64,000 nt of DNA from Escherichia phage vb_EcoM-VR5 (NC_028881.1), one strand, 5' to 3'; shown: positions 1 through 38,264, counted from the stretch's first letter. Numbers and translations: made by a program. Notes: generated by a model from the letters alone, not told the origin.

Positions 1-363
1 AAGGTGGCGTTGAGCTTCGGCAACACCTGCACGGTCAAATTCATCAATAACAATTACTTTACGCTTACCTTCGATAGATTTGGAAGATGCAAAACGAGTA
101 AGTTCATTACGAACGAAATCAATACGGCAGTCAGAACCATTAACAAACAGCATGTCTGAATTTGTATCAGCACACAGTGCTTTAGCTACGGTAGTTTTAC
201 CTGTACCCGGTGAAGCAGAGACTAGGATAATGTTAGGGATTAGGCCCTTATTAACAATAGCTTGGAGAGTTTCTTTATCATGGGCGGGTAGAATACATTC
301 AGATAAAGTACCTGGACGATATTTCTGTTCCCACATGAATTCATTATTATTTACTGTAAGCAT
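1..363 (-). CDS. 44: clamp loader large subunit gp44, N-terminal part (gene continues past window start)
   Basis: Minus-strand translation from ATG at 363 gives MLTVNNNEFMWEQKYRPGTLSECILPAHDKE...SASPGTGKTTVAKAL (Walker A), collinear with T4 gp44; SD GAGGAAA upstream; lies just downstream of gene 45 as in T4. The plus-strand track ORF 80..442 is its antisense shadow. Confidence 0.85.
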   Translation of the reverse strand, partial: MLTVNNNEFMWEQKYRPGTLSECILPAHDKETLQAIVNKGLIPNIILVSASPGTGKTTVAKALCADTNSDMLFVNGSDCRIDFVRNELTRFASSKSIEGKRKVIVIDEFDRAGVAEAQRHL

Positions 364-4762: not shown

Positions 4763-4946
4763 AAGCCAAGCACCGTTATCGCAATGCAAAATAAAATTAT
4801 TGAAATGAACCCGTCTGGAGTGGAAAAGAATCCTATCCAACAAGCTCGTGTGAATGTGTAGAATGCCATGAATAACACGACATATCCTAAAAATAATTCC
4901 ATATGTTCTCCTCAGTTGGTTCATTTTATCATCCCGAATATAAAGC

Positions 4947-4969
4947 AAAAAAGGAAGCACTAGGCTTCC
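4947..4969 (-). terminator. rho-independent terminator-like hairpin upstream of gene 47 (approximate coordinates)
   Basis: RNA sense GGAAGC-CUAG-UGCUUCC followed by UUUUUUGC; closes a 57-codon unlisted minus ORF (about 4960..5133). Confidence 0.5.
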
Positions 4970-5375
4970 TTTCCAATTAATACACCGTACAGAGGTTCAC
5001 GATTAGACGTGAACTTGATGGGTTTATAGGTAATAGTACCTTCATTTTCTGCTTTAATACGAGCGGCTTCAAATTGAAGCATCATCTCATTTTTGTCAGA
5101 TTTAATCTTATCAAAATCCGTCGAACTCGTCATTCATATGACCCCTTAAAAATCTGGATGTTCGTCATTCATTAGCCAGCCGTCCATGTTATCATCGCTG
5201 CCACCACTTCTTAAGTTGATGAGAATCCACCCAAACCTTGGCTACAGGCTCAATCTGAAAAATTCCATCAGATAACCTGCCTACCATTTTGTATTCGGTT
5301 TCAGACTGCTTAATACAGATATTACCGTACGAACGAAGTCTGAAAGCGGCTCCAATAAGAAGCCGTTTAAAGGGT

Positions 5376-5687
5376 TTATTTACTAGCGCCATTGATAATT
5401 TCCCAAATCTGTTTACGTGTAGTTTCCCACATAACTCTAACGATTTCATCGGTAGTCGGTTGTCGGTAAATACCACGCAATTTAATTATAGCATATTTGT
5501 AAGCTTCGAAATTGTTTTCGAGAACAGCACCCTGTGCATGTTTATTAAGACGTGTAATTTCACGAGCATTCTTTTTAAGGATTTTAGCAGCCTGTGAATC
5601 GGCTTCTTTAGCATTGTTCTCTTCTAAACGCTTCTGAGCTTCTTCAATCTGCTTATCAGTCAATTGAGAAATGTCGGTGCTTTGCAT
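5376..5687 (-). CDS. hypothetical protein (charged, helical)
   Basis: 103 aa ORF in the 47-55 interval where T4 carries a-gt/47.1; no recognisable motif. Confidence 0.4.
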   Translation of the reverse strand: MQSTDISQLTDKQIEEAQKRLEENNAKEADSQAAKILKKNAREITRLNKHAQGAVLENNFEAYKYAIIKLRGIYRQPTTDEIVRVMWETTRKQIWEIINGASK

Positions 5688-5688
5688 A

Positions 5689-5916
5689 TTAATCCTTGTA
5701 ATTCAATTTTATATAAAAATCTTCGTCAGTAACGTGATAGTTATAAGTTAATGTTCCTTTTTCAGTTTTAATTTCTACCGAATCGGGGTGTTTTGGGTCT
5801 ATTACAATAGGAAGTTTGGCAATATCCTTAAGATACATTTTAAGAACATAAGGAATTGCCGAATACTCTCCATCTACTTCTTCTAAAAGGCCTACCAGGT
5901 TAATCTTGAGTTCCAT
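5689..5916 (-). CDS. hypothetical protein
   Basis: Track ORF 5689..5952 trimmed to internal ATG ([13 protein letters not shown]...); short overlap with the gene 55 stop. Confidence 0.35.
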
Positions 5917-6457
5917 ATAAAAAATCCAGCTCACCAACTTTAGATTCAGCACTCTTATCAGACCCTGGCGCTTTAACTAAAGAGGTTTCATACTGAGTCA
6001 TTTTGTCGTAAATATCCTGGATAAAAGTTTCATCTGCGATACCTACCATGTCGTCGTCATTAGCGTCATAAACGTTATGGACGAAGTAGCTATATTTCTT
6101 TGCCATTTCTTTACGTTCTTTCTTGATACGCTGAACAAAGGCATTAAAACAAGCCATAGTGATATATGCATGTGGGTTGTCGTATTTTGTTTCGTCGAAG
6201 TTGTGAAGACCTTTAATAGAAGCTTCGATTCCATCAGCAATCATTTCTTGCTTCCAGGATTGGGTATATCCGGAGAAGTTAAAACGTTTACTTAGGCCTT
6301 CAGCAATGAGCATAATAGCCAAGCCGATAACGTCGTTCTGACGAACTATTTTATTAGGGTCGGTATTTTCTCGGAGCTCTGTTTTCCACTGGGTAATGGC
6401 TTTCAGAAGCTCCTTATTATTTACATAGTTATTTTTAGTCAGTTTAATTTCGGTCAT
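5900..6457 (-). CDS. 55: late-transcription sigma factor gp55
   Basis: 185 aa; ...NYVNNKELL...[57 protein letters not shown]... matches my recollection of T4 gp55 (185 aa) almost residue for residue. Confidence 0.95.
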
Positions 6458-15401: not shown

Positions 15402-15450
15402 CTCCAGTAGTTGATAGGTCTATAGTATCATTCCTACTGGAGATGTAAAC
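15402..15450 (-). promoter_or_regulatory. PeSL-like promoter/stem-loop cassette, approximate
   Basis: Conserved 20-mer ttgataggtctatagtatca between perfect 9-bp inverted repeat ctccagtag/ctactggag, then gtaaac; RNA sense GTTTAC-N17-TGaTACTAT (extended -10). Confidence 0.7.
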
Positions 15451-20104: not shown

Positions 20105-20156
20105 CTCCTCATTAGTTGATAAGTCTATAGTATCATGTTCCTAGAGGATGTAAACA
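20105..20156 (-). promoter_or_regulatory. PeSL-like promoter/stem-loop cassette, approximate
   Basis: ttgataagtctatagtatca (1 mismatch to the 20-mer) flanked by cctc..tag / ctagagg, then gtaaac. Confidence 0.65.
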
Positions 20157-24540: not shown

Positions 24541-24590
24541 CTCCTGTAGTTGATAGGTTTATAGTATCATGCCTACAGGAGATGTAAACT
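24541..24590 (-). promoter_or_regulatory. PeSL-like promoter/stem-loop cassette upstream of regB, approximate
   Basis: ttgataggtttatagtatca between perfect inverted repeat ctcctgtag/ctacaggag, then gtaaac. Confidence 0.7.
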
Positions 24591-26094: not shown

Positions 26095-26226
26095 AGTTGT
26101 CTCTTAGTAGGGGCCATTCCTTGGCACATAATTCATCCCTTTCTGCATTTACCCATTACCGCACTTGGGCTCGACCTTATTACAGGTTGGTGGGAGTCCC
26201 TCAGTATTGAGGTCCAGGTTGCTCCC
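26095..26226 (-). other. GC-rich structured intergenic element downstream of denV; likely gene-end remnant (approximate)
   Basis: Hairpins CCUCA-AUAC-UGAGG and GCCA-AGGAA-UGGC; segment ccttggcacataattcatcc repeats the 3' coding end of 25567..26094 (ccttggcacataaatttattcatc); homologous to the element at 27008-27140. Confidence 0.45.
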
Positions 26227-26643
26227 TTATGCATAAATCGCCTTACTGTAATATTTATACCAGGTAGGGCGTTGTGCAATTTTTTCGTCTAAACGGGCCT
26301 GTGATATAACGATAGAAGCTTCATGGGGGATATAATCACCACGGAATTCCTGAGGAATATCACTAATATCCTGGACTGTAGTATCCTTGATATTAAACCC
26401 ACGTTTTAGACATTCGTCTATAAGCTCAATTTGACGTTTACGTAAGAACTCGAGCTTATCGTAAAAGAATGTAACATGACCTGTGCCAAGGATAAAAGTA
26501 GGACTGATTTTAAAATCACGAACCCGTTTACCATTAGCAACATGCTTACGAACTGCACCAAAAACACGTGGTAATTCACGATATTCGGCCATTAAGTGTT
26601 GGTCAGCCAATTCAGATACTAAAGTAAGGTTGATACGAGTCAT
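26227..26643 (-). CDS. denV: endonuclease V (pyrimidine-dimer DNA glycosylase) DenV
   Basis: 138 aa; [53 protein letters not shown]... is essentially identical to my recollection of T4 DenV. Confidence 0.95.
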
Positions 26644-26649
26644 TTTAAT

Positions 26650-26699
26650 CTCCTGTAGTTGATAGGTCTATAGTATCATACCTACAGGAGATGTAAACT
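26650..26699 (-). promoter_or_regulatory. PeSL-like promoter/stem-loop cassette upstream of denV, approximate
   Basis: Consensus 20-mer ttgataggtctatagtatca between perfect inverted repeat ctcctgtag/ctacaggag, then gtaaac. Confidence 0.7.
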
Positions 26700-26707
26700 A
26701 CTATGAA

Positions 26708-27007
26708 CTAGAAAGAACCAGAGCCTTTAATTGTGTTCTGGCGTCCTTTATTTTCTACTTCAGAGTGGTCGATTTCGTAAGCTTGTGCTACACCAAAGGA
26801 TTTTTTAATTTTGGCCAACGACCCTTTAGAAATAACAATGTTAAAGGTATTGCCTTTAGAAAAATCTACCAAATCTACAGTAACGCCGTTATTGGTTAAA
26901 CTATTAACAATAGCATCAACATATTGTTGGTCTAAAGTTCCCTGAACGCCGATTTGAAAAGCTTTAGGTGCTTTAGCTTCAGTGATAAATTCTTGATATG
27001 TTTTCAT
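26708..27007 (-). CDS. ipII: internal protein with capsid-targeting sequence (IPII-like)
   Basis: 99 aa; N-terminal MKTYQEFITEA is the T4 capsid-targeting sequence; size and position (between denV and ipIII) match T4 IPII. Confidence 0.6.
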   Translation of the reverse strand: MKTYQEFITEAKAPKAFQIGVQGTLDQQYVDAIVNSLTNNGVTVDLVDFSKGNTFNIVISKGSLAKIKKSFGVAQAYEIDHSEVENKGRQNTIKGSGSF

Positions 27008-27140
27008 TTCAAATCCTAGCTGGTTTTAATTAAAAGCCATTCCGTGGCTCATTAGTTAAGGTTAATCCCTTCCTGCAGTACCTGTTCGAGTGCTCGGGCC
27101 CTCCTCATAGAGGTTAGACCCTGTTAGACTTTATTAGGAA
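27008..27140 (-). other. GC-rich structured intergenic element between ipIII and ipII (approximate)
   Basis: Hairpins CCUC-UAU-GAGG and GCCA-CGGAA-UGGC plus conserved GCAGGAAGGGAU block; homologous to the element at 26095-26226. Confidence 0.45.
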
Positions 27141-27710
27141 TTAACGGGCTGCATTAGCAACAGCGTAAGCGTACTGAATATTAGCGTCTTTAAACTTACC
27201 TTTAGAGGTATCTATTTCTGCCTTAAAGCCGCCTTTAGTCATAACATCGGCAAATTCTTTACGGAAAGCCATTGCATCAAGACCTTTCCATGATGATTTA
27301 TGCTTGGCAAATTCAAGACCTGCGAAGTTGACAGCTTTAGCCAATTTATTATCAATAGCCCATTTACCGGCTTTAGGCACAAACTTCGGGCCCTTCTGTT
27401 TAGAGAACAGTTTTAAATTCCAGCGGCGAAGGTCCGAATCAGCTTTAACAAATTCGGAGTCTAAATTACTAGCAACAACATCGTCAATATGAGCGAATTT
27501 AAGTCCGTCAACTTCAATATTTAGGTCGTTACGCCAGCGAAGTCCTTCCCAGGCGAAAGCTTTAAAGTCAGAAGCTTTTGTAGCTAAGTACCGTTCAATA
27601 GGAGCTGTTTTAGCGTCAAAACCGTTTCCTCGGTAGGTCCACTCATCTTTGTTAATGCCTTGGGCTTTTCCTACAGAAGCTTCGGCGATAAATTCTTTAT
27701 ATGTTTTCAT
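27141..27710 (-). CDS. ipIII: internal protein with capsid-targeting sequence (IPIII-like)
   Basis: 189 aa; N-terminal MKTYKEFIAEA; size and position (immediately upstream of e) match T4 IPIII (193 aa). Confidence 0.6.
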   Translation of the reverse strand: MKTYKEFIAEASVGKAQGINKDEWTYRGNGFDAKTAPIERYLATKASDFKAFAWEGLRWRNDLNIEVDGLKFAHIDDVVASNLDSEFVKADSDLRRWNLKLFSKQKGPKFVPKAGKWAIDNKLAKAVNFAGLEFAKHKSSWKGLDAMAFRKEFADVMTKGGFKAEIDTSKGKFKDANIQYAYAVANAAR

Positions 27711-27798
27711 GTGTTTCCTTTAAATATTTTAATTAGCGATTTGACTGTTTAAGTAACTGTGAATATAGTATCATGACCACAGATCAAAGTAAACAAAT

Positions 27799-28293
27799 TT
27801 ATAGATTTTTATACGCGTCCCAAGTGCCAGTTCTAAACGTTGCAATGACTCGCTTAGCTCGGTTGGGGGTCTGTTTGTACCAACGAGATTGCGCTAGGTT
27901 AACTGCGGCCTCATCCCAACGTTTTTGTTGGAGCATACGAAGAGAGTTAGTAAATCCTGCTACACCAGCTTCACCCATTTGGAAGACCATATTAATTAGT
28001 GCGCAACGACGAACTTCGTCAAGCACATCATAAACAGGTTTCAATTTAGGATTACGCAAAATAGCCCTACGAGCATTTTCCACTGAACGATTAAAGAGTT
28101 GTTCTGCTTCAGTCATTGTAATACGACCATTACAAACTCGACCCATAAGTTTATCAAGTTCAGCACGAGCAACATCTTTAGAAGGATTCTTGGTTATCAA
28201 TTGGCCGATGCCAATAGTCCAATAACCTTCGGTGTCTTTATAAAGATTTAAATCAAGACCTTCGTCTTGACGTAACATATCAAAAATATCCAT
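27799..28293 (-). CDS. e: endolysin (T4 lysozyme, gene e)
   Basis: 164 aa; [35 protein letters not shown]...[44 protein letters not shown]...[10 protein letters not shown], collinear with T4 lysozyme including catalytic E11/D20/T26. Confidence 0.95.
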
Positions 28294-28294
28294 A

Positions 28295-28318
28295 ATACCT
28301 CCTGAGTATAGGAGGTAT
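28295..28318 (-). promoter_or_regulatory. leader hairpin sequestering the gene e Shine-Dalgarno (approximate)
   Basis: Window palindrome atacctcct-gagtat-aggaggtat; in RNA sense the SD AGGAGG forms the 3' arm of a 9-bp stem directly before the ATG, as described for T4 gene e early transcripts. Confidence 0.5.
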
Positions 28319-28327
28319 TTATTATTC

Positions 28328-28777
28328 TTAGAACATTGAGCTCAGAACCTTATACATCGACTGGCCCATGACATATTCCCATTGTGGACGTTTAATCAAG
28401 GCGAAAGCATCGAACTCAGGAATACTACGACCGTCAGGGAACGTATGATAAGCCGTACATTTGCAATTCTTGAACTGCTCGTGTTCCACAGGCACAGTAT
28501 ATAAGAACAGGTGTAGATTCTTATTGCTGGAATATTTGAACTCACCTAGGTCTTTCAGGAACGCAGGGTCATATGCAGTGAATCCAATCTCTTCTTCGGT
28601 TTCACGCATAGCAGCTTGGATAGGCTCTTCACCTGATTCAACATGACCTTTAGGAATGTCCCATTTATGACGCATATTCTCTGGATTACGAGAACCTGTT
28701 ACACGACCCATGACTAGTTCTTTATCAACGGTCATGAACAAAATACCAGCGGATAATTCTTTAACTTTCTTACTCAT
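28328..28777 (-). CDS. nudE: Nudix hydrolase NudE
   Basis: Track ORF 28328..28906 trimmed to internal ATG ([14 protein letters not shown]...), 149 aa; Nudix box [23 protein letters not shown]; adjacent to e as in T4. Confidence 0.8.
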
Positions 28778-29006
28778 AATCACGTTCCCAAGATTTTTTA
28801 AAGATTTCGGCCATAATAATTTCAATGCGTGTTTCTGTTGAAGGAGATTCACTATCAGAAGTTTGAACTCTGTATTCAGAAATCGGGCGTAACAAGTCCA
28901 GGTCAATTTCTAAATCATCTTTGATTTCAACTTCAGGCGTACCTTTATCATAGGAATACAGGTAAGAATCACATGACTCTGATTTAATATAAATTGCAAT
29001 ACTCAT
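28770..29006 (-). CDS. hypothetical acidic protein
   Basis: 78 aa ORF. Confidence 0.35.
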   Translation of the reverse strand: MSIAIYIKSESCDSYLYSYDKGTPEVEIKDDLEIDLDLLRPISEYRVQTSDSESPSTETRIEIIMAEIFKKSWERDYE

Positions 29007-29596
29007 TTACGACATTCCTCAATAAAATCATTTAAGTTCTTTTTAGTTTTACCTTCGTCATAAAGACGTTGTTGACGACGTAAACGCCATGGCATTTCAA
29101 TAGCCAGACACCAGATACTTAAGGCAACGCCTGCGGTAAAAAGGTTCATTAACCCGGCGCCAATAATGGTTCGTTCTAACGCATCATTCCAGTTTACATC
29201 AATTAAAAACGAGCTCAGCACTAGCATCGGAAGTAAAGTAATAAGATATGCCACTACATATCGTCCAAACGTAAGCCATTCGGTATCAATGAGCTTTGCC
29301 TTTCCATCTTGGAAGCAAATATACTTATCGTCAGTGCGAGTAATTTTCTTTGCAGGTTGCCAGCCATTTACAATATAACCCATTTTATATTCCTCAATTA
29401 AAAGCTCTTTCATATGACGGTTACAATGCGACCAATCTACTGTACTAGCTGCAATTCCTTCATCACCATCATCAAGATTTCGCCAGGACTTTTTAATAAC
29501 CATATTTTCACCGCTTGGTACAATGATTCCGGCGTTTTCAGAACGACGGACGAAGTTCACATCTAGGCCCATACATCCGGGTTCATAAAGAGCCAT
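29003..29596 (-). CDS. membrane protein with C-terminal FIEECRK tail
   Basis: 197 aa; hydrophobic helices in the C-terminal half; ends ...KNLNDFIEECRK, a motif shared with 33817..34353 and 33471..33824. Confidence 0.45.
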   Translation of the reverse strand: MALYEPGCMGLDVNFVRRSENAGIIVPSGENMVIKKSWRNLDDGDEGIAASTVDWSHCNRHMKELLIEEYKMGYIVNGWQPAKKITRTDDKYICFQDGKAKLIDTEWLTFGRYVVAYLITLLPMLVLSSFLIDVNWNDALERTIIGAGLMNLFTAGVALSIWCLAIEMPWRLRRQQRLYDEGKTKKNLNDFIEECRK

Positions 29597-30282
29597 TACC
29601 AGCCCTCCATAGGGAATTCAAGATAAACTTGAGCATTGACACGGATTTCATTGGTAATATTTTTAACACGGTCAGTGTTACGAGATACACGTCCAAACCA
29701 GCGCCATCCATTACTTACCGTACGAGAACCGGTATGCCAGGTTTGCCAATCAAACTGCAAGAGTGTACGGTCTGGAGCTTCCCACTGTTCCAATTCACCT
29801 GATTCAATTTTAGCCAAGACTTCTTTGTGCCATTGGCGATAAATCAATTCACCTTCCGGGATTTCACTAAAGGTAGCTTCACCGGTAGCAAAATGGGTAG
29901 GACACACATCAGCGTTAACAAGACCAAGAATGTGTTCAGACAAATAGCGAGGATTGTCATAATCAGGTTGTCCTGCAGTAATAAAATGTTGGCCTGTTGG
30001 AATAGGTGGACGAGGAACATCGTCATGGTGATAACCTGGGATAGCCGGATACCAGCCTGGCATCAACATATGCACACGCGAATCAAACACTACTTGGTCA
30101 TTGTTCCAATCATCAGGCAAGTTCATAATAAAAGAGCGTGTAATACGGTCACCGTTATTATAAGCAAATTCTAAACTACAGTTGAAGAACATCGGTTCGT
30201 TCTTGATTTTATCATTAGAAATACCGCCAGCAAAACCACCTACTGCACGAGCTTGACTATTAAAAGTTTTAGGACCGTTCAT
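29596..30282 (-). CDS. hypothetical protein (228 aa)
   Basis: Track ORF 29596..30366 trimmed to internal ATG (MNGPKTFNSQARAVGG...); His/Asp-rich stretch GYHHDDVP. Confidence 0.45.
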   Translation of the reverse strand: MNGPKTFNSQARAVGGFAGGISNDKIKNEPMFFNCSLEFAYNNGDRITRSFIMNLPDDWNNDQVVFDSRVHMLMPGWYPAIPGYHHDDVPRPPIPTGQHFITAGQPDYDNPRYLSEHILGLVNADVCPTHFATGEATFSEIPEGELIYRQWHKEVLAKIESGELEQWEAPDRTLLQFDWQTWHTGSRTVSNGWRWFGRVSRNTDRVKNITNEIRVNAQVYLEFPMEGW

Positions 30283-30295
30283 AATATTTTCCTCA

Positions 30296-30508
30296 TTACT
30301 TTTTATTGAAAAAGTACATTTTACCTTTAGGAGATAAAGATACACGAAGCGCGTTACCGATACCAACTGAACATTTAACCAGGTCAGCAGATTTCAATTC
30401 ACCAAACGCTTGACGAAGGTCACCATCACGAGTGTTAACCATCAGGCATTTAGCACCAGCTGCACGAACTTCGTTTAACATGTTGATTGCGTTAGTAGAA
30501 AGTTTCAT
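30296..30508 (-). CDS. hypothetical small protein
   Basis: Track ORF starts with TTG inside the promoter; trimmed to ATG behind SD GGAGAA (MKLSTNAINMLNEVRAAG...), 70 aa. Leader GGAGAATAAAATGAAA is shared with 37449..37634. Confidence 0.4.
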   Translation of the reverse strand: MKLSTNAINMLNEVRAAGAKCLMVNTRDGDLRQAFGELKSADLVKCSVGIGNALRVSLSPKGKMYFFNKK

Positions 30509-30534
30509 TTTATTCTCCATTTCACTCTGTTGTT

Positions 30535-30575
30535 TTGATAGGTCTATAGTATCACACCTATAGACCTTGTACACT
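30535..30575 (-). promoter_or_regulatory. PeSL-like promoter/stem-loop cassette, approximate
   Basis: Consensus 20-mer ttgataggtctatagtatca with perfect inverted repeat ggtctatag/ctatagacc; -35-like GTGTACA in RNA sense. Confidence 0.6.
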
Positions 30576-30586
30576 GTTTTATGCAA

Positions 30587-31546
30587 TTATTTTTCGAAAG
30601 GTCGAATTAAATGATGATTGTCTTGGAATCGCTTGATGTAATCATTTTCACCTAAAGCCTTATACATATTCACTACAGCTTGATAGTTTTCCCACGCGTA
30701 TTCGCGGAACCACCCGGAAGTGATAGAGGTGCACACTTTCTCAAGAGCCATATAGAAACTTGTGGCCGCTGGGATATTGAAGTCATTAGGAACCTGTGAA
30801 CGTTCTAGGGCCAGGACACAAGTTTCTTCGTATACGCCGGCCAGTTTAATAGCTTCAGGCAAAGCTTCAAACTTCTCACGAGAGGTCATGACTTCAGACC
30901 CATCTTTCATATAAAAGGTATACGCTGGACGTCCGGCCAGGGCCACAGCTTCATGGATAGAGTCGTGGTCTAATGTATAAATGATATCATTAAAGAATGA
31001 AGATTTGTTAACGTCTAGTTTAGGGTGAGAATAGCTCAACGTTTCTTTCTGACGTTGCAGCATGATTTCTCGGAGCTCTTCGTTCAGGGTTACACCCTTA
31101 TTACGAAGGTATTTGATATGGGACATCGTCTTCAAAAAGAACGGGTTGTTCTTCAAATAACGGTGGCTCATTTTGATAGCTAGACAGATATCAGGTGTAG
31201 CCCAATAGAAACCTGTCATACGATCTTTCTTAATATGATTTTCAGCATATTTCAGAAGACGATAGCTTGAGGTGAAGTCTTCATCTTGAAGCTCATCAGT
31301 GATTTCTCGTACGTTAGTCAAAGCGCGAACGATATAAGCTTCAAAATAGGTTTCTTTACCGTTGTGCATACATTTGAAAGCCTGAACATCAGGGTTATCT
31401 ACGTGTACATGGGCACCGAACATCTGCGCTTTAAAGTTATTCCATGAACCCTGGTCGGCAATGAAATCCCAATCAGAATTTTCGATATATTTACTTTCAA
31501 TTAATCCGGCATGGTGCAGGGCCCGAGAGCCAATAACTAACATCAT
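30587..31546 (-). CDS. hypothetical protein, possible nucleotidyltransferase-fold N-terminus
   Basis: Track ORF starts with TTG; trimmed to ATG behind SD GAGGAAAA (MMLVIGSRALHHAGLIESKYIENSDWDFIAD...), 319 aa. The GS...DWD pattern is NTase-like but the spacer is long; weak call. Confidence 0.4.
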   Translation of the reverse strand: MMLVIGSRALHHAGLIESKYIENSDWDFIADQGSWNNFKAQMFGAHVHVDNPDVQAFKCMHNGKETYFEAYIVRALTNVREITDELQDEDFTSSYRLLKYAENHIKKDRMTGFYWATPDICLAIKMSHRYLKNNPFFLKTMSHIKYLRNKGVTLNEELREIMLQRQKETLSYSHPKLDVNKSSFFNDIIYTLDHDSIHEAVALAGRPAYTFYMKDGSEVMTSREKFEALPEAIKLAGVYEETCVLALERSQVPNDFNIPAATSFYMALEKVCTSITSGWFREYAWENYQAVVNMYKALGENDYIKRFQDNHHLIRPFEK

Positions 31547-31565
31547 AATATTTTCCTCAGTAAAC

Positions 31566-31805
31566 TTAAATTTCTGCAACGTAATCGTTATGCAATTCCC
31601 ACATATCGTCAGAATTACTCTTCACGATAGGAATTATCTCATTAGAGATTTCTTCTGCATAAGGGTCATTGATACAATGAGCCTCTTCAAAACGAACACC
31701 GTAATCAGACTTCTTATAGGCAAACCCATAAATCTTTTTAAACTTGGTCCGACTAATGCGCGCCGGCTCATCAGATTTATCAGACAACGGAGAGTAATAC
31801 CACAT
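31566..31805 (-). CDS. hypothetical protein
   Basis: 79 aa ORF (MWYYSPLSDKSDEPARISR...). Confidence 0.4.
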   Translation of the reverse strand: MWYYSPLSDKSDEPARISRTKFKKIYGFAYKKSDYGVRFEEAHCINDPYAEEISNEIIPIVKSNSDDMWELHNDYVAEI

Positions 31806-31849
31806 AATGTTCTCCTCATGTTTGTGTATGGTAATAGTACCACAGTTTT

Positions 31850-32179
31850 CTAGAGTTGTACATCACTTCTGCAATATTCTAAAAATAATTTATTGTTGTC
31901 AACTGTATCCCAACGTCGCCAAGATGGATTCCAGACCAAAGCGTTGTCACCACAATCATTGAGCTTAAAATGGTCATAGTACATAGCTATATGTCTAGTC
32001 TCGTCACCAGAGAACCCTAGTATAGGCTCACCATGAGTATGATACATATGATGATGCATTGAGAGGTCGCATTTATAAAACATCTCACGTTTACCACGAA
32101 TGAACAAGAAAGCTTGTCCGTTCATATAGAATTCTTTATCTGTTTTCAAAAGATATTTGAATACTGAATCTTTGTGCAT
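31850..32179 (-). CDS. hypothetical His-rich protein
   Basis: Track ORF starts with GTG; trimmed to ATG behind SD GGAGGA (MHKDSVFKYLL...), 109 aa; HHHMYHTHGEP cluster. Confidence 0.4.
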   Translation of the reverse strand: MHKDSVFKYLLKTDKEFYMNGQAFLFIRGKREMFYKCDLSMHHHMYHTHGEPILGFSGDETRHIAMYYDHFKLNDCGDNALVWNPSWRRWDTVDNNKLFLEYCRSDVQL

Positions 32180-32217
32180 AAGTCCTCCTACCACATCCGT
32201 GTGATTATTATATCCTA

Positions 32218-32442
32218 TTAACAGCTACTTGGATACCAGATTTTACCATCAGCTTGGGCAACGAAGGTGCGGCCAGCTTCTTCACCATAACAAGAGCTAT
32301 TCAGCCAATCTTCAAGACGAACTTCGCCGTCATAATCGTCGAGCTCGACACCGAAATTTTGGGCAGAAGCCATATCTTTAACTTTCTTATACAATGCGGC
32401 CAGTTCAAGAGCAGCTTTTTCCAATTCATTAATATCAGACAT
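32218..32442 (-). CDS. small acidic protein, paralog family with C-terminal SSC tail (copy 5, most divergent)
   Basis: 74 aa; ends ...GKIWYPSSC; last of five tandem genes. Confidence 0.5.
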   Translation of the reverse strand: MSDINELEKAALELAALYKKVKDMASAQNFGVELDDYDGEVRLEDWLNSSCYGEEAGRTFVAQADGKIWYPSSC

Positions 32443-32451
32443 TTTTATTCC

Positions 32452-32673
32452 TTAGCAAGACATAGAGGAGGTAAACCAAAAACCTTCACCATCATTAATA
32501 CCATAATCACTGCGAACCCAGTCGTAATCTTCGTACTCAGGATTCTTCGGTGAAATATATTGTCCACGACCAGAAACATGGAAATCTTCACCAGTTTCAT
32601 CAGCCACGCTCTGACCTTCACGAACTAAAGCTCGGATTTGGTCTTCAATTTCTCTAACAGTTTTAGTAGTCAT
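32452..32673 (-). CDS. small acidic protein, C-terminal W-x-S-S-x-x-C paralog (copy 4)
   Basis: 73 aa; ends ...GEGFWFTSSMSC. Confidence 0.5.
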   Translation of the reverse strand: MTTKTVREIEDQIRALVREGQSVADETGEDFHVSGRGQYISPKNPEYEDYDWVRSDYGINDGEGFWFTSSMSC

Positions 32674-32682
32674 TTTATTACC

Positions 32683-32880
32683 TTAACATTCGTAAGAGGA
32701 GGACACCCAAGAGGTACCGCTAATAGTAATGCATCCATTATAAAGCTCAATATGCCTGTCTAAGTCACGAACACCATCGATATAGATATCAGCTTCTTCA
32801 CGTTCTTCTTTACAAATCTGGATAACATTTTCAATAGCCGCTTTAGCAGTACGGATTGCACAATCTAATTCACGAGACAT
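32683..32880 (-). CDS. small protein, C-terminal W-V-S-S-S-x-x-C paralog (copy 3)
   Basis: 65 aa; ends ...GTSWVSSSYEC; 3' coding sequence ttaacattcgtaagaggaggacaccca is near-identical at DNA level to copies 1 and 2. Confidence 0.55.
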   Translation of the reverse strand: MSRELDCAIRTAKAAIENVIQICKEEREEADIYIDGVRDLDRHIELYNGCITISGTSWVSSSYEC

Positions 32881-32889
32881 AATATTTCC

Positions 32890-33171
32890 TTAACATTCAG
32901 AAGAAGAGGACACCCAACCACCTTTTTCAAGGTCGGTGGTGTAGTCGTGGGTGTTAACGATAGCGTATTGAGGCTCACCATAGTTTTCCCAATGAGCAAG
33001 GTCGGCTTTCAGGGCGCCAGGAGAATAATAGTCACCGCCCATACCGCGAGCAGGGTATATATTAAAATGAGTCTCATATTTGTCTGCAATTTCCTCAGCT
33101 CGGCGAATAGCTTTATGGATTTCATTTACTGCGTTAGCCAGTTCTTTATTTTTACTGTAATCGTTCATCAT
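32890..33171 (-). CDS. small protein, C-terminal W-V-S-S-S-x-x-C paralog (copy 2)
   Basis: 93 aa; ends ...KGGWVSSSSEC. Confidence 0.55.
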   Translation of the reverse strand: MMNDYSKNKELANAVNEIHKAIRRAEEIADKYETHFNIYPARGMGGDYYSPGALKADLAHWENYGEPQYAIVNTHDYTTDLEKGGWVSSSSEC

Positions 33172-33180
33172 AATAAACCC

Positions 33181-33474
33181 TTAACACATTTGAGAAGAGG
33201 ACACCCATGCACCAGAAGTAACGATACCGTTTTCATCGACTTCGCCACCATTGTTTTCAATTTCATCACGCATCCAGCGAGAGCATTCATAACCAACCGG
33301 ATAATAGGTGCGTCCAGAACCATATTCACCTACATCAAACGAGACACCATACTTATCTGCAATAATAGTAGCTTCATTCTCGATATGGTCTTGGGCCCGA
33401 AGAAGTTTGCTGATAGCGTCCGTTGCGGTTTGAACGTCATTGTATTCAGGGATAGCGATTTCAATTTTATTCAT
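33181..33474 (-). CDS. small protein, C-terminal W-V-S-S-S-x-x-C paralog (copy 1)
   Basis: 97 aa; ends ...SGAWVSSSQMC. Confidence 0.55.
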   Translation of the reverse strand: MNKIEIAIPEYNDVQTATDAISKLLRAQDHIENEATIIADKYGVSFDVGEYGSGRTYYPVGYECSRWMRDEIENNGGEVDENGIVTSGAWVSSSQMC

Positions 33475-33824
33475 GATTTACATTCCTTAATAAAGGTTTC
33501 AAGTTCATTACATTTGGTTTGTTTTACATACTCATTATAATTAGCCATAGCTAAAGCATATCTCTTACGGGCCGGGGCATTCAAGGCGTTTGTGTAACAG
33601 ATATCATACACAACCGGGATAAAATAGGCCACAACAGCCGGAGCAATTATCATAAAGAAGCCCATCTCAATAGGCATGACTCCCTCGATTGCCGCCATAA
33701 CCGTGGTCATTACCAGACCAACTAGACCGCCGAGCATACCGGTAGCAAGGCCTGCAAATAAAGTAATGGCTATATCGTAATCGGCTAATGCGTAACTAGG
33801 GTCGGTTTTACTAGGCTTATGCAT
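33471..33824 (-). CDS. polytopic membrane protein with C-terminal FIKECKS tail
   Basis: Track ORF 33471..33842 trimmed to second ATG; three or more hydrophobic helices; ends ...ELETFIKECKS. Confidence 0.45.
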   Translation of the reverse strand: MHKPSKTDPSYALADYDIAITLFAGLATGMLGGLVGLVMTTVMAAIEGVMPIEMGFFMIIAPAVVAYFIPVVYDICYTNALNAPARKRYALAMANYNEYVKQTKCNELETFIKECKS

Positions 33825-34353
33825 TTTGGGCCTCTTTAGCATATTCGCGGCATTCTTTAATAAAACGATTAAGCTTACGTTGCTGTTTACGACTTTCTAA
33901 TGTATACTCGTCGGCCAAAATAATAAGCTCACCTTTATCGTAATTTTTAATATCAGAGTAAGATGGCCGCCGGTCAACCATTCCAAATAAATCACCGTTT
34001 TCTAGCGCCGCATAGCATACTAAATGATAATCGTCATCAGCATTAATAAGCTGCTTATAATCGCTAGGTTCGTTTAAAGCGTACACCGAATATCTTACTC
34101 CGGCGAATTCAACTCGCTTTATATCTAATCCAAGGTCAATAATTTCTAAAGCTTCTGCAAAAGAAAGGTCTTCTGCTAAAGCAAAAATAAAAGGTAATTT
34201 AGTAGTATAGCTACGGTTATTTGTTCTGCTTAAGAAATCATTAGAATAACCTAGGTCCTGGCGAATTCTATAAAGAACTGCATTAGTTTCATGGGCAAGA
34301 CCGCTATGTTTAAACCAATCAATATTTGATATAAGGTCATCATATAAGCTCAT
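33817..34353 (-). CDS. hypothetical protein with C-terminal FIKECRE motif
   Basis: 178 aa; ends ...KLNRFIKECREYAKEAQNA; SD GGAGAGGAG upstream. Confidence 0.45.
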   Translation of the reverse strand: MSLYDDLISNIDWFKHSGLAHETNAVLYRIRQDLGYSNDFLSRTNNRSYTTKLPFIFALAEDLSFAEALEIIDLGLDIKRVEFAGVRYSVYALNEPSDYKQLINADDDYHLVCYAALENGDLFGMVDRRPSYSDIKNYDKGELIILADEYTLESRKQQRKLNRFIKECREYAKEAQNA

Positions 34354-34376
34354 AATATTCTCCTCTCCTCCAAAGA

Positions 34377-34394
34377 GGGAGACCGAAGTCTCCC
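34377..34394 (-). other. UUCG-tetraloop hairpin between co-directional genes (approximate)
   Basis: RNA sense GGGAGAC-UUCG-GUCUCCC without a strong U tract; probably a stability or processing hairpin rather than a full terminator. Confidence 0.45.
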
Positions 34395-34401
34395 AGTAAC
34401 A

Positions 34402-34995
34402 TTACTTAAGTGAATTGATGTAGTCTTCGATATCAGCTGAAGTCGTATCCATTCCAACTTGAGGGCCTTTAAACGTTTCTACACGCATCAGGGTATCTTC
34501 AATATCAATCTTAGTCAGTGCAGCGATTTCAACAACATCGTCAGCAGTAGCAATACCTAATGCAGCCATATTACGAGTTTCACGGATGTATTCAAGCTTA
34601 ACTGCTAGTTCTTGTCGAGAGTCATCAAGTTCCTTAACCTTAAGCTTGATTTCATTACGCATTTCGATATAATCGTCGGCTTTCTTACGAAGTTGAGTAG
34701 CTGTACGACGATAAAGGAGGCCGAGTTTAGCATGTACCTGGACATCGGCACCTTCAGCAATCAATTTACGGATTTCACGTTCTTTAGAACTAGCCAGTTG
34801 GTCCTTTTCGTTAGCGAGTTCACGAATACGTTTTTCTTCACTTACAGACTTAACGTGAGCAGTCTGGAGCTCGGTAATTTTATCAATTAGAGTAGAAGCA
34901 GCTTTAGTGTATTGGTCTTCAATTGACAGGTTCTGGGCCATTGCGGTACCAAGTTTAGAGCGGATGAATTCAACGATTTTCTTTAAAGTGTTCAT
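34402..34995 (-). CDS. coiled-coil protein, possibly PspA/IM30-like
   Basis: 197 aa, charged heptad-like sequence throughout; N-terminus loosely resembles PspA. Weak call. Confidence 0.35.
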
Positions 34996-35022
34996 AGTAT
35001 TTCCTTCAGTGGTTGTTTCGTT

Positions 35023-35063
35023 TTGATAGGTCTATAGTATCACGTTTAAAGGTGATGTAAACT
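35023..35063 (-). promoter_or_regulatory. PeSL-like promoter/stem-loop cassette, approximate
   Basis: Consensus 20-mer ttgataggtctatagtatca, atcac/gtgat inverted repeat, then gtaaac. Confidence 0.65.
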
Positions 35064-35105
35064 GCTTTGTGAAATTATTTTTGGTCTAACCCCCTAAAAG
35101 GAGAC

Positions 35106-35126
35106 CGAAGTCTCCTTTCATTATTT
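35106..35126 (-). terminator. rho-independent terminator (approximate)
   Basis: RNA sense AGGAGAC-UUCG-GUCUCCU followed by UUUUAGGGGG, after the stop of 35154..35708. Confidence 0.55.
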
Positions 35127-35153
35127 ACAGGTCTTTTCGAACTGGGCAGTGAA

Positions 35154-35708
35154 TCAGTTCTTGTAGAACCGGAATGGGTTTATGTGGAAGGCTAACATGG
35201 CTTTATGGATTTTACGAGACAAAAGACTCTTAAGCTTCCAGCCACAGTACACGCGAAGGTAAAATGTGATTCCACCAACCTTAAGATAAGGAACTGAAGC
35301 AAATACACCCCAGGCATCATCATTCCACATCCATAACCAACCATGGTGAGCTTTATCAGGAGAACCAGATTCTACATCAGGATTACCGCGATAATGGAAT
35401 TCTGAACTACAATCACGTCCTAGTTTATGGTAAGCAAAGTTATAAGCTTTATTTCGCCATAGCCAAGCTACTCTCTGGAGATAAACACCACCAGGCATTT
35501 TCCTGATTTTAGCCCAACGTTTAATATGACCTTTGTCGCCGTCAATTGGATTATCGTATGTCATCATCCAATCAAAGCCATAAGGCAATTTACCGGTCTT
35601 TTTATTGTAGAAAGGAACTACAAAAGGCGCAAGGATAACGGCTAGAACCATAGAGATAAAATCTAGTGGGACCAACAGAATCCAACTCAAATATTTTAAA
35701 AGTTTCAT
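35154..35708 (-). CDS. membrane-anchored Trp-rich protein, apparently late-expressed
   Basis: 184 aa; N-terminal hydrophobic helix; preceded by TATAAATA late-promoter motif and SD AGGAAAT. Confidence 0.45.
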   Translation of the reverse strand: MKLLKYLSWILLVPLDFISMVLAVILAPFVVPFYNKKTGKLPYGFDWMMTYDNPIDGDKGHIKRWAKIRKMPGGVYLQRVAWLWRNKAYNFAYHKLGRDCSSEFHYRGNPDVESGSPDKAHHGWLWMWNDDAWGVFASVPYLKVGGITFYLRVYCGWKLKSLLSRKIHKAMLAFHINPFRFYKN

Positions 35709-35734
35709 ATTATTTCCTAAGTTAGTTTACTACA

Positions 35735-35742
35735 TATTTATA
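35735..35742 (-). promoter_or_regulatory. late promoter motif TATAAATA (minus strand), approximate
   Basis: Window tatttata = TATAAATA in RNA sense, about 25 nt upstream of the ATG at 35708. Confidence 0.5.
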
Positions 35743-35743
35743 C

Positions 35744-35771
35744 AAAAAAGGCCCAACCTTTCGGAAGGGCC
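35744..35771 (-). terminator. terminator-like hairpin downstream of the tRNA cluster (approximate)
   Basis: RNA sense GGCCCUUCC-GAAA-GGUUGGGCC (GNRA loop, internal UU mismatches) followed by UUUUUUG. Confidence 0.45.
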
Positions 35772-35941
35772 TTTAACCTAGGGTAACCTTGTCGGGGTTC
35801 CACCTGCTAGGCAAGTGTTCGGTGCGCCGTTTCAGCTGTGATATAAGGGGGCATTAACAAAACATAAAGATTTATTAATGCCAGTCCTTAAACAGAGAAC
35901 TTCAGTCCGACGACTTACCGGTAGCGACCCGGTTTCTTGTT

Positions 35942-36017
35942 TGGTCGAGACAGTAGGGATCGAACCTACGACCTAGGACTTAGAAGGTCCTTGCTCTTCC
36001 TTCTGAGCTATGCCTCG
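35942..36017 (-). tRNA. tRNA-Arg (anticodon TCT, reads AGA); approximate coordinates
   Basis: Hand-folded: acceptor CGAGGCA/TGTCTCG, D arm GCTC/GAGC, anticodon stem AGGAC/GTCCT with loop CTTCTAA, T arm GTAGG-TTCGATC-CCTAC, encoded ACCA end. Confidence 0.75.
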
Positions 36018-36023
36018 TGTTTG

Positions 36024-36150
36024 TTCATAGCGGGGTGGACTCGAACCACCAATATTAAGTCACTCATGCTCCAAGCATGCTAGGGCACTTACCCCGGACG
36101 GAATCGAACCGCATCTACAATACCTATCGCCATGATAATTTAAAATAAGT
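36024..36150 (-). other. tRNA-like fragments / possible small stable RNA between the two tRNAs (approximate)
   Basis: Two T-arm-like motifs (RNA GGUGG-UUCGAGU-CCACC and GCGG-UUCGAUU-CCGU) only about 62-66 nt apart, plus hairpin CAUGCU-UGG-AGCAUG; no full cloverleaf could be folded by hand. Confidence 0.3.
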
Positions 36151-36151
36151 T

Positions 36152-36225
36152 TGGTGGCCCTGGGTGGAATCGAACCACCATCCAGCGATTATGAGTCGCT
36201 CGCTTGACCGTCCAGCTACAGGGCC
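36152..36225 (-). tRNA. tRNA with CAT anticodon (Met, or Ile2-type reading AUA as in T4); approximate coordinates
   Basis: Hand-folded: acceptor GGCCCTG/CAGGGCC, anticodon stem AGCGA/TCGCT with loop CTCATAA, T arm GGTGG-TTCGATT-CCACC, encoded ACCA end. Confidence 0.7.
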
Positions 36226-36303
36226 TTAATTCTATTATGAAAGGCTCTTTGAGGGAAGAACCTTTGGTAATAGAGGGTACTTATTAATAATAACACATAA
36301 CTC

Positions 36304-36774
36304 TTAAAGCATATTAAGTGCTTTAACTTTCGGGATTTGGATTTCTTCTTCGATGATGTATAATTTTACCCACGAAACTACGCGCATAAAATCACTATCA
36401 TATTCCACTGGCTCACCCAGCAATTCCTGGAGAGAACACATTAATTCAAATTCCTGGCCATTGTCACCATCAACCAGATTTTCAATACAAAGTGTTTTGT
36501 TAATGAAGTCAGGAGTTAATTGACCGGATTTTACACCAGATTCAATGTGTGCGATAATCAAGTGCTTAACCACATCCCATTCTGAATTACCACATTTATT
36601 GCGGTTATTACAATGAGAGCCTTGAAAAAGTTCCAGGATATATTTGTACTGTTGGATTTCTTGTTCTTCTACACCAAATATTGTCTGGGTTTTGTAGTTG
36701 TCACCGTCATTTTCCCAGGTTTCAATTTCAATCACATAACCTTTAGGGATGGTTTGTCCGAATTTAATTTCCAT
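36304..36774 (-). CDS. hypothetical acidic protein (156 aa)
   Basis: ORF upstream of the tRNA cluster; Cys/His pairs in HCNNRNKCGNSEWD. Confidence 0.45.
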   Translation of the reverse strand: MEIKFGQTIPKGYVIEIETWENDGDNYKTQTIFGVEEQEIQQYKYILELFQGSHCNNRNKCGNSEWDVVKHLIIAHIESGVKSGQLTPDFINKTLCIENLVDGDNGQEFELMCSLQELLGEPVEYDSDFMRVVSWVKLYIIEEEIQIPKVKALNML

Positions 36775-37064
36775 TAAAATATACTCGCATATTGATGTTT
36801 GATTATATCAAGACCTAAAGGATTTTTAAAAATATCATAATCCTCTGGACCTGTTTCAGTTTCAATAAAGAAATTAAAATTCACAGTATTGAATTTACGG
36901 TCTTCCTTAACCAGTTTAACATTAGAATGACTACGACCTATTTCCAAACGTTCAACTTCAAAACAAGTTAAGATGCCATAATCATCAATCAACTGCTTTG
37001 CGGCATCTTGGTCTGATTTATACCCGTTATTAGCCTTGTCACCTATCGTAGCATAAAGAATCAT
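36774..37064 (-). CDS. hypothetical protein
   Basis: 96 aa ORF with stop/start overlap with neighbours. Confidence 0.4.
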   Translation of the reverse strand: MILYATIGDKANNGYKSDQDAAKQLIDDYGILTCFEVERLEIGRSHSNVKLVKEDRKFNTVNFNFFIETETGPEDYDIFKNPLGLDIIKHQYASIF

Positions 37065-37066
37065 AA

Positions 37067-37447
37067 TTAACCTTCATCAACAATAGTATGGGTATTAGCA
37101 TTAACAATCTGCCACCAGTCAAAACGGTTAGAACCATATTGAGGCTTATTCTCGTTTTCTTTAATGATATCACGCAGTTCATCTTCGGTAGCGGCTTTTG
37201 CGATTAGGTCTGCATAACCGCCACGGGGATAATAGCTATCGCCAGCAAAGAGTAAAAAGTTTGTTTTGATATTCTTGAATTCTTCAAGAGTAATAACCGT
37301 TCCAGATGGTTGAACAATATCTACGTAACTATATCCTAATTTCTGGGCTTCATTTACTGCTTCAAGCAGGGTGTCATGGGCCCATCCGATTTGACAATCC
37401 GGTTTTTCAGATGGATTTGCTTGATAATCTGCGTACACTTTATACAT
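37067..37447 (-). CDS. hypothetical protein
   Basis: Track ORF 37067..37495 trimmed to internal ATG (MYKVYADYQANPSEKPD...), 126 aa. Confidence 0.4.
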   Translation of the reverse strand: MYKVYADYQANPSEKPDCQIGWAHDTLLEAVNEAQKLGYSYVDIVQPSGTVITLEEFKNIKTNFLLFAGDSYYPRGGYADLIAKAATEDELRDIIKENENKPQYGSNRFDWWQIVNANTHTIVDEG

Positions 37448-37448
37448 T

Positions 37449-37634
37449 TTACTCACCTTTAGAGATTTTATCCATAACGAAAGAGATTGAACCAATTAAA
37501 AATGCCACTACTAAAGAGATTGTATTCTCGGAAGTTGTAAGCAAATCCAACATGAATCCTGCAAACATGCTAAAACCAAAAGCAGTAATAGCAACAAGCG
37601 CAGTAACATTTCTAATTAATTCACAACGTTTCAT
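37449..37634 (-). CDS. small membrane protein
   Basis: Trimmed to ATG behind leader GGAGAATAAAATGAAA (MKRCELIRNVTALVAITAFGF...); two hydrophobic segments. Confidence 0.4.
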   Translation of the reverse strand: MKRCELIRNVTALVAITAFGFSMFAGFMLDLLTTSENTISLVVAFLIGSISFVMDKISKGE

Positions 37635-37659
37635 TTTATTCTCCAATCACTCATTTGTT

Positions 37660-37701
37660 TTGATAGGGCTATAGTATCACCACTAGAGCCCATTGTAAAC
37701 A
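37660..37701 (-). promoter_or_regulatory. PeSL-like promoter/stem-loop cassette, approximate
   Basis: ttgatagggctatagtatca (1 mismatch) with inverted repeat gggctatagt/actagagccc, then gtaaac. Confidence 0.6.
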
Positions 37702-37702
37702 A

Positions 37703-37975
37703 TTATTTTAGATAAATTGCATATTTTTTATAGCCAGCTGTCTCGTGGCGCAACCCTTTGTCATTAGCAAAGCGTTCAATATTATTAATTTGATTTTGGT
37801 CGAGTTCTGAAATATCAAATACAAAAAAGTTTCGCTTATTGCCTAAAGTTACATGATTAGTCAAATCGATGTTATAGAGATGATTTATATTATCAATCAT
37901 GGCCTTAACAGATTTGCTAATTTTTACTTCTTCATTAAGAATAGATTCAGCGATAAATTCTTGATAGGTTTTCAT
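37703..37975 (-). CDS. internal-protein-like protein with capsid-targeting sequence
   Basis: Trimmed to MKTYQEFIAESILNEE...; N-terminal capsid-targeting sequence; about 90 aa. Confidence 0.5.
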   Translation of the reverse strand: MKTYQEFIAESILNEEVKISKSVKAMIDNINHLYNIDLTNHVTLGNKRNFFVFDISELDQNQINNIERFANDKGLRHETAGYKKYAIYLK

Positions 37976-37976
37976 T

Positions 37977-38201
37977 TTATTCTGCACCAGCAGCTTTCAA
38001 AAGTTTTTTAAGATTGGCTGTGCCCTGAGCAGAAAATGTGACCTTGCCACCTTTTTCACTGATAGAACCAACCAATTTAGCAAGTTTATCATTAGGAATT
38101 TTTTTAAAATCAGCCAATGTTCCATCAAAGGTTTTTGAAACAAAAGGCAGTTCGTCTTCGTGTCTTTTAGCTTCGGTAATAAATTCTTGATAAGTTTTCA
38201 T
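37977..38201 (-). CDS. internal protein with capsid-targeting sequence (IPI-like position)
   Basis: 74 aa; MKTYQEFITEAKRHEDELPF...; lies just upstream of 57B where T4 carries ipI. Confidence 0.5.
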   Translation of the reverse strand: MKTYQEFITEAKRHEDELPFVSKTFDGTLADFKKIPNDKLAKLVGSISEKGGKVTFSAQGTANLKKLLKAAGAE

Positions 38202-38223: not shown

Positions 38224-38264
38224 TTGATAGGTCTATAGTATCATATTTATAAATGCTGTAAACA
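38224..38264 (-). promoter_or_regulatory. PeSL-like promoter cassette with overlapping late-promoter-like TATAAATA, approximate
   Basis: Consensus 20-mer ttgataggtctatagtatca followed by atatttataaat (TATAAATA in RNA sense), then gtaaac. Confidence 0.6.

Follow-up and report, generated by a model that had tools for sequence, protein, structure and literature searches.

Bacteriophage T4 packs about 300 copies of each of its internal proteins (Ips) into the head and ejects them into the host cell (PMC9026906). Residues 1-10 of IpIII are enough to bring IpIII or foreign proteins into the T4 prohead; amber-suppressor work in T4 assigned targeting mainly to residues 4 and 7 and processing to residues 8 and 10, and the prohead protease gp21 cleaves after L/I-x-E (PMC9026906). 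The T4 IpII and IpIII precursors are annotated in GenBank X04567 as -10..90 and -10..183, i.e., with a 10-residue propeptide. T4 Ip1, Ip2, and Ip3 are inhibitors of GmrSD-family type IV restriction, one separate system apiece, and do not cross-protect (Silas et al. 2025, PMC12373910); the three systems are CT596, ECOR21/BrxU, and the ECOR17 GmrS1/GmrSD2 doublet (PMC12373910). Here we describe four genes of this class in a 64,000-nucleotide stretch of DNA from Escherichia phage vB_EcoM-VR5 (NC_028881.1), referred to below as the window (39% G+C). The four genes are an ipIII orthologue, an Ip7-family gene, ip8, and ip9, and none of them founds a new family.

Four internal-protein genes of phage VR5

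All four genes lie on the minus strand. The Ip7-family gene (26708..27007) encodes a 99-residue precursor with the leader MKTYQEFITE at 26978..27007 and a predicted mature form of 89 residues, with an isoelectric point (pI) of 9.0. Immediately upstream of it, ipIII (27141..27710) encodes a 189-residue precursor with the leader MKTYKEFIAE (27681..27710) and a predicted mature form of 179 residues (pI 9.6). The second pair consists of ip9 (37703..37975; 90-residue precursor, leader MKTYQEFIAE at 37946..37975, predicted mature form of 80 residues, pI 8.0) and ip8 (37977..38201; 74-residue precursor, leader MKTYQEFITE at 38172..38201, predicted mature form of 64 residues, pI 9.6). A first-pass annotation of the window had listed these four open reading frames (ORFs) as starting with MKTY(Q/K)EFI(A/T)E, and all four are present where it placed them, with no further such ORF in the window. 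That annotation also treated 26708-38201 as one feature; the span does hold the leader genes, but they occupy two loci about 10 kb apart, with unrelated genes between them (e, nudE, many small ORFs, and two tRNAs).

Each of the four proteins is identical to an entry of the VR5 genome (170,473 bp) annotated “putative internal head protein”: AIZ01904.1 (Ip7), AIZ01905.1 (IpIII), AIZ01928.1 (Ip9), and AIZ01929.1 (Ip8). Their PHROG families are all annotated as internal head or virion proteins, with E values ranging from 3e-27 to 2e-115. IpIII is 95.3% identical to T4 IpIII over 190 residues and belongs to phrog_5341 (“internal virion protein”, E 1.5e-115). Among the bodies, i.e., the proteins without their leaders, that of Ip7 is 50% identical to RB15 Ip7 (E 2e-23) and 88% identical to JS10_0110 (phrog_2667, E 2.5e-42), that of Ip8 is 96.9% identical to RB15 Ip8 CAA84465 (phrog_8765, E 2.8e-27), and that of Ip9 is 78.8% identical to RB15 Ip9 CAA84463 (phrog_7673, E 7e-57). 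VR5 Ip8 (AIZ01929.1) also falls into one 90% cluster with the Ip8 proteins of RB15 and K3. All four ip families were reportedly named in 1994. The proteins are thus not new, since they already carry the names IpIII, Ip7, Ip9, and Ip8 and are annotated in VR5.

The four bodies do differ from one another, as had been claimed: no pair aligns at E<0.4 in blastp when the leaders are removed. Alignment to T4 IPI, IPII, and IPIII identifies one of the four as IpIII. Ip7 shares only 12 N-terminal residues with T4 IpII, although its gene stands in the ipII slot, and none of the four has body homology to T4 IPI*, the best alignments covering 7 leader residues at E 0.2-1. A Pfam search with the four proteins yielded no match above threshold, and weak matches to DUF7412 are restricted to the leader. 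A sequence search of the PDB gave no match for IpIII or Ip9 and none above noise for Ip7 or Ip8; a match of Ip7 to PDB 6xi1 (E 3e-6) is spurious, being the sum of four repeat matches with i-Evalues of 17-160 each. The AlphaFold2 model of Ip9 has a mean predicted local distance difference test score (pLDDT) of 81.8 and an alpha-beta-beta-alpha-beta-beta topology, and that of the Ip7 body (pLDDT 51) is unusable.

We searched the window for leader-coding DNA with a degenerate 30-nt pattern, allowing up to three mismatches and using shuffled sequences as controls. The pattern matches four times, at exactly the four ip genes, compared with 0.01 matches expected from the shuffles, and a less stringent motif search at the protein level, covering the six frames of the window, revealed no fifth leader-bearing ORF of useful length. 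Far from being limited to the first four residues, the N-terminal likeness covers all ten and ends at residues 10-16. Eight of the ten leader residues are invariant, with variation confined to positions 5 (Q/K) and 9 (A/T). Of the five leader nucleotides that vary, three are third codon positions with synonymous changes, which indicates selection on the peptide and not recent copying of the DNA.

The residues important in T4 are retained. The aromatic residues at the targeting positions, Y4 and F7, are invariant in all four proteins, as are I8 and E10, so that each leader ends in I-A-E or I-T-E at residues 8-10 and is followed by A or S. The leader therefore matches the IPII/IPIII type of T4 capsid-targeting sequence with its targeting and processing residues kept, in agreement with the first-pass annotation. 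T4 IPI, which that annotation cited as a known inhibitor of a type IV restriction system, shares the logic of delivery, but its leader is different, being 19 residues long (MKTFKEFTSTTTPVSTITE).

Several observations show that the four ORFs are real genes. Ratios of nonsynonymous to synonymous substitution (dN/dS, Nei-Gojobori method) against homologues are 0.02-0.20 overall: 0.12-0.20 for IpIII, 0.02-0.17 for Ip7, 0.03-0.20 for Ip8, and 0.08 for Ip9. The four mature bodies are under purifying selection, and homologues of the proteins occur in 106-283 phage records each. A Shine-Dalgarno sequence (AGGA/AAGGA) lies 5-8 nt upstream of the Ip7 gene, ipIII, and ip8. For ip9, the frame in a mechanical ORF list reaches upstream to a GTG (37987); every annotated homologue uses the ATG (37975) as its start, and this choice places the leader at the N-terminus. 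The ip9 start follows the ip8 stop by 1 nt, and phage 005 shows the same arrangement, suggesting translational coupling of the two genes. The predicted mature proteins (6.8-20 kDa, pI 8.0-9.6) resemble T4 IPI*, IPII*, and IPIII*, and the net charge of Ip9, Ip7, and Ip8 is just +1 to +4.

The Ip7 and Ip8 bodies were found solely in phage genomes about as large as that of T4, most of them named T4-type phages. As a separate observation, a 77-residue protein of Escherichia phage OLB35 labelled “ip7 protein” appears to be a chimera that joins the middle of an Ip7 body to the C-terminal 33 residues of an Ip9 body. It has no leader and resembles what deletion or recombination between adjacent ip genes would produce.

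Cassette exchange at the two ip loci

The window follows T4 gene order, with gp45, rpbA, gp46, gp47, and gp55, then vs.8, denV, e, and nudE, then tRNA-Arg and tRNA-Met, and finally trna.4, 57B, 57A, and gene 1, continuing to gp17. The two ip pairs sit at both canonical T4 ip loci: Ip7 and ipIII between denV and e, and ip8 and ip9 between 57B and trna.4. The Ip7 gene fills the slot of T4 ipII, and ip8, as the first gene after 57B, fills that of T4 ipI.

Comparison with T4 DNA locates the edges of the exchanged segments. At the denV-e locus, homology to T4 covers 26111-26699, is interrupted at 26700-27128, and returns from 27129, showing that the Ip7 gene and its 133-nt upstream spacer replace T4 ipII. 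At the 57B locus, homology runs through 57B into the leader, of which it includes the first 22 nt, and restarts right after the ip9 stop, where a block of T4 homology (37448-37702) has its edge. We considered the leader itself as the recombination junction. By virtue of those 22 nt, the idea fits the ipI slot at its upstream edge, but nowhere else; at the ipII slot the whole gene and its upstream spacer are exchanged.

The spacer between ipIII and the Ip7 gene (27008-27140) is unusually G+C-rich for this DNA, and neither T4 nor AnYang has an equivalent. Two hairpins occur in it, and a short U-run after the second makes that one weakly terminator-like. Its fold is no more stable than those of shuffled controls (z = -0.54), and Rfam found just the two tRNAs over 26-39 kb.

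Early-promoter-type motifs bracket both cassettes. The motif GTTTAC-N14-19-GATACTAT fits the PST/T4 PeSL promoter consensus TTTACW-N17-TAYWAT (PMC4122927) and occurs eight times on the minus strand of the window, against zero copies expected. Four of the eight bracket the two ip pairs. At the denV-e locus, one copy (27765..27794, minus) lies upstream of ipIII in the e-ipIII spacer, at a position kept in T4, JS10, and AnYang, and another (26670..26698, minus) begins 10 nt past the Ip7 stop, upstream of denV, and marks the downstream edge of the cassette. Similarly, at the 57B locus one copy (38235..38263, minus) lies upstream of ip8, and the other (37671..37700, minus) begins 3 nt past the ip9 stop, upstream of trna.4, again at the downstream cassette edge. 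The four copies away from the ip pairs, also on the minus strand, are at 15422-15450, 20127-20155, 24561-24589, and 35034-35062, and several copies have the spacer ATCTCC(T/A)GTAGG in common. The spacer of the copy before ip8 also contains the late-promoter octamer TATAAATA (38244..38251). This octamer is not enriched across the window (10 occurrences against 8.1 expected), and before ip8 it is common to ESCO10 only, not being kept in T4 or 005; its function is therefore uncertain and we make no claim of late expression.

The gene complement at the two loci varies among related phages. The closest record in the phage collection is Dhakavirus vB_EcoM_ESCO10, with 94.9% identity over 82% of a 24-kb query. 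Its denV-e locus carries e, denV, a 119-residue ORF, and Ip7 with no ipIII, so that Ip7 stands on the other side of denV relative to VR5, and its 57B-trna.4 locus carries ip8 only, with no ip9. The 119-residue ORF matches the leader-bearing gp053 of AnYang in size and position. JS10 has e, ipIII, a 132-residue leader-bearing gene, denV, and Ip7 at the denV-e locus, and in Klebsiella T4-like phages ipIII adjoins Ip7 there, at about 68% DNA identity. RB15 carries ip5-ip9-ip7-ip8 between 57B and trna.4. The promoter block is conserved before ipI in T4, ip5 in RB15, and ip8 in 005, ESCO10, and the window. Because this block is kept whichever ip gene follows and each family is under purifying selection, the Ip set diversifies by replacement or movement of whole cassettes between the two loci and not by rapid sequence change within families. 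PeSL promoters have been proposed by Comeau, Arbiol, and Krisch as mediators of modular shuffling, with an explicit link to the IP locus (PMC4122927).

Two further observations concern database records and the DNA between the loci. In the ESCO10 record (OM386655.1), product names appear to be shifted against the genes; for example, “RNA polymerase-ADP-ribosyltransferase” stands for the Ip7 homologue, “prohead core protein” for the Ip8 homologue, “portal vertex of the head” for 57B, and “baseplate subunit” for lysozyme e. Within the window, 32218-33474 on the minus strand holds five tandem small paralogues of 74, 73, 65, 93, and 97 residues, spaced 9-10 nt apart. At the very C-terminus, four of the five proteins have W-x-(S/T)-S-S-x-x-C or a sequence close to it, and the remaining one has WYPSSC. 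Matches are to the C-terminal part of phrog_899 for four of them and to phrog_4882 for one, both families of unknown function, and none has a Pfam match.

Delivery, probable targets, and alternatives

We consider it likely that the four genes encode T4-type internal proteins that are packaged, cleaved, and injected, with IpIII inhibiting GmrS1/GmrSD2 and the other three being probable inhibitors as well. Gene identity, leader conservation, locus, cassette boundaries, and purifying selection are directly supported by the comparisons above, and for packaging, cleavage, injection, and inhibition we infer the steps from T4. By this analogy, the 10-residue leader would dock the precursor on the scaffolding core during prohead assembly, and gp21 would cut after I-(A/T)-E10 to free a small basic protein of 64-179 residues. 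The mature protein would remain in the head, where T4 holds hundreds of copies, and would be ejected into the cell with the DNA, and so would act ahead of any phage gene expression. IpIII, to which we assign its function on the basis of 95% identity to T4 Ip3, is expected to block the ECOR17-type GmrS1/GmrSD2 pair, a type IV restriction system made up of two genes. Ip7, Ip8, and Ip9 would most likely each inhibit one target stoichiometrically, the targets being other nucleases or defences of the host that attack entering modified DNA. The cassettes themselves may be replaced or moved between the two loci as units bounded by PeSL-type early promoters and leader-coding sequence. The first-pass annotation had also seen the four proteins as injected anti-restriction effectors with possibly new targets; the former is the current published view of the Ip class, but the latter does not apply to IpIII, whose T4 orthologue has a known target.

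Several points weigh against this interpretation. Plating tests of Ips against GmrSD-like systems, which the first-pass annotation had proposed, have largely been done already by Silas et al. (PMC12373910). In that work, ip4-10 gave no reproducible inhibition of representatives of 15 synthesised GmrSD groups, and apparent signals for ip7 against CLS_011 and for ip8 against CLS_018/019 failed to reproduce (PMC12373910); a type IV target for Ip7, Ip8, and Ip9 is accordingly unproven. Virion proteomics of Ip7, Ip8, and Ip9 was not found in the literature searched, including that on JS98-type phages, and a literature search on the three proteins by name was unproductive. Further internal (L/I)-x-E motifs are present in Ip9 (ISE and LNE, at 37811-37819 and 37937-37945) and in Ip8 (ISE at 38054-38062), and gp21 might cut these two proteins there as well; Ip7, IpIII, and the three T4 IPs have no such internal motif, and the counts are within chance expectation. 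Moreover, the genes for gp21 and gp22 lie off the window, which ends in gp17, and we take their presence from the fact that genes 20-23 are core in all T4-type phages (PMC9026906).

DNA chemistry adds another reservation. In T4, the alpha-glucosyltransferase gene, mobB, and a-gt.2-5 lie between genes 47 and 55. In the window, gp47 (3740-4960) and gp55 (5900-6457) are separated by an interval of about 940 nt (4960-5900) that contains only ORFs of at most 103 residues, and no alpha-gt lies between the two genes, its T4 position. A 2026 study predicts arabinosylated 5-hydroxycytosine in Dhakaviruses instead of glucosyl-hydroxymethylcytosine (PMC13326640). The lineage therefore probably has DNA without glucosyl-hydroxymethylcytosine, judging from gene content and this prediction, and with a different modification the target assignments derived from T4 may not transfer, even for IpIII.

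The distribution of the Ip9 body raises a related question. A word-indexed protein search with Ip9 gave only close T4-like relatives, and the leader-less forms emerged when the Ip9 body (37706-37945) was compared by full HMMER search with 1.84 billion representative proteins. Only nine clusters of relatives were found, and these are of three kinds: T4-like forms with the variant leaders MKFNEFLTE and MKSFKEYLTE; leader-less stand-alone proteins of 66-74 residues in Kagunavirus siphophages, among them the 72-residue WWY66496; and a domain near the C-terminus of 755-861-residue Ackermannviridae proteins (phrog_3867 plus phrog_7673). In Kagunavirus UTEC10, the protein is 50% identical to the Ip9 body and is the first in an operon of small genes beside replication genes. 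Based on these matches, the Ip9 body appears as a portable domain whose range extends beyond phages of T-even DNA chemistry, and leader-less homologues in phages of other DNA chemistry argue against a target specific to T-even modification. We tentatively entertain, at well below even odds, that these roughly 70 residues form a portable effector domain older than its use as an injected protein. If this were true, and one host factor served all three forms, the Ip9 target would be a defence or host function that is enterobacteria-wide and independent of T-even modification. The negative GmrSD panel would then be explained for Ip9, and T4-like phages would have turned an early anti-host gene into a pre-loaded one merely by adding a 10-residue leader.

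One rival explanation accepts that Ip7, Ip8, and Ip9 are injected and places their targets outside type IV restriction, in bacteriophage exclusion (BREX), type I restriction-modification, abortive infection, or host take-over. We regard it as a real but minority possibility: it would account for the lack of reproducible effect of ip4-10 on the 15 GmrSD groups and for the leader-less Kagunavirus proteins and the Ackermannviridae domain, which occur in phages without T-even cytosine chemistry. However, all three T4 Ips with known targets act on GmrSD-family enzymes, GmrSD diversity is very large and representatives alone were tested, and masking by O-antigen concealed such phenotypes previously (PMC12373910).

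Another rival holds that these small basic proteins work mainly in the capsid, binding or neutralising DNA or filling the core, with no specific host target. Their pI values of 8.0-9.6 fit this idea, as do the abundance of the T4 IPs (about 300 copies each), their binding to DNA at low salt, and a head role long called elusive (PMC9026906). Yet each of T4 Ip1-3 has a specific host target, the net charge of Ip9, Ip7, and Ip8 is low, and unrelated bodies each under strong purifying selection would not be expected of generic polycations. Since the presence or absence of individual ip genes also differs among close relatives, no Ip is structurally required, and we judge a purely capsid-internal role to be very unlikely. 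The notion that the common N-terminus is a chance or annotation artefact and that some of the ORFs are not genes draws on their small size alone; it is already refuted, and its residual probability is negligible, given four leader matches against 0.01 expected, homologues in more than a hundred records for each protein, dN/dS of at most 0.20, and exact annotated counterparts in VR5. Overall, injected inhibitors of T4 type remain our preferred explanation.

Comparison with known systems

No phage counter-defence other than the internal proteins is already in the cell at the moment the DNA enters, and each Ip characterised to date disarms a different type IV restriction enzyme. As each has its own target, the Ip set helps decide which wild strains can be infected, and it is relevant to the choice of therapeutic T4-like phages. 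The useful leads from VR5 are the targets of Ip7, Ip8, and Ip9, which a direct screen did not reveal, and the leader-less relatives of Ip9 as a handle on its target.

A more distant parallel is offered by the Dar proteins of phage P1, which are unrelated to the Ips, are incorporated by another pathway, and protect against type I restriction-modification. These too are reported to be capsid-carried anti-restriction proteins ejected with the DNA (PMC12810830), and the likeness is one of analogy.

T4 IPI*, the inhibitor of GmrSD from E. coli CT596, is closer. It is alike in its gp21-cut propeptide, small mature form, and injection, features that on the VR5 side are assigned by analogy, and its gene occupies the same slot after 57B as ip8 and ip9. 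In contrast, the likeness does not extend past the first 7 residues, the IPI leader has 19 residues, and no VR5 body is homologous to IPI*.

T4 IpIII (Ip3, NP_049735) is the closest known counterpart of VR5 IpIII. It resembles the VR5 protein over its full length, and its gene likewise lies directly downstream of e behind the same upstream early-promoter block. The VR5 protein differs from it by Q5K in the leader, a 1-residue deletion, and a C-terminus shorter by 4 residues, and the cytosine modification of the two phages is probably different.

For the remaining three proteins the closest parallel is RB15, which has the same leader and body families as VR5, with body identities of 50% for Ip7, 97% for Ip8, and 79% for Ip9. 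Ip8 and Ip9 are encoded between 57B and trna.4 in both phages, whereas the four RB15 genes are gathered in one locus and VR5 has ip8-ip9 there and Ip7 at the other locus. VR5 Ip7 is moreover a diverged subtype, at 88% identity to the JS10/AnYang form and 50% to RB15 Ip7. VR5 thus provides a clean example of a known pattern, in which one Ip with a known target is accompanied by three orphans in an arrangement unlike that of its closest relatives.

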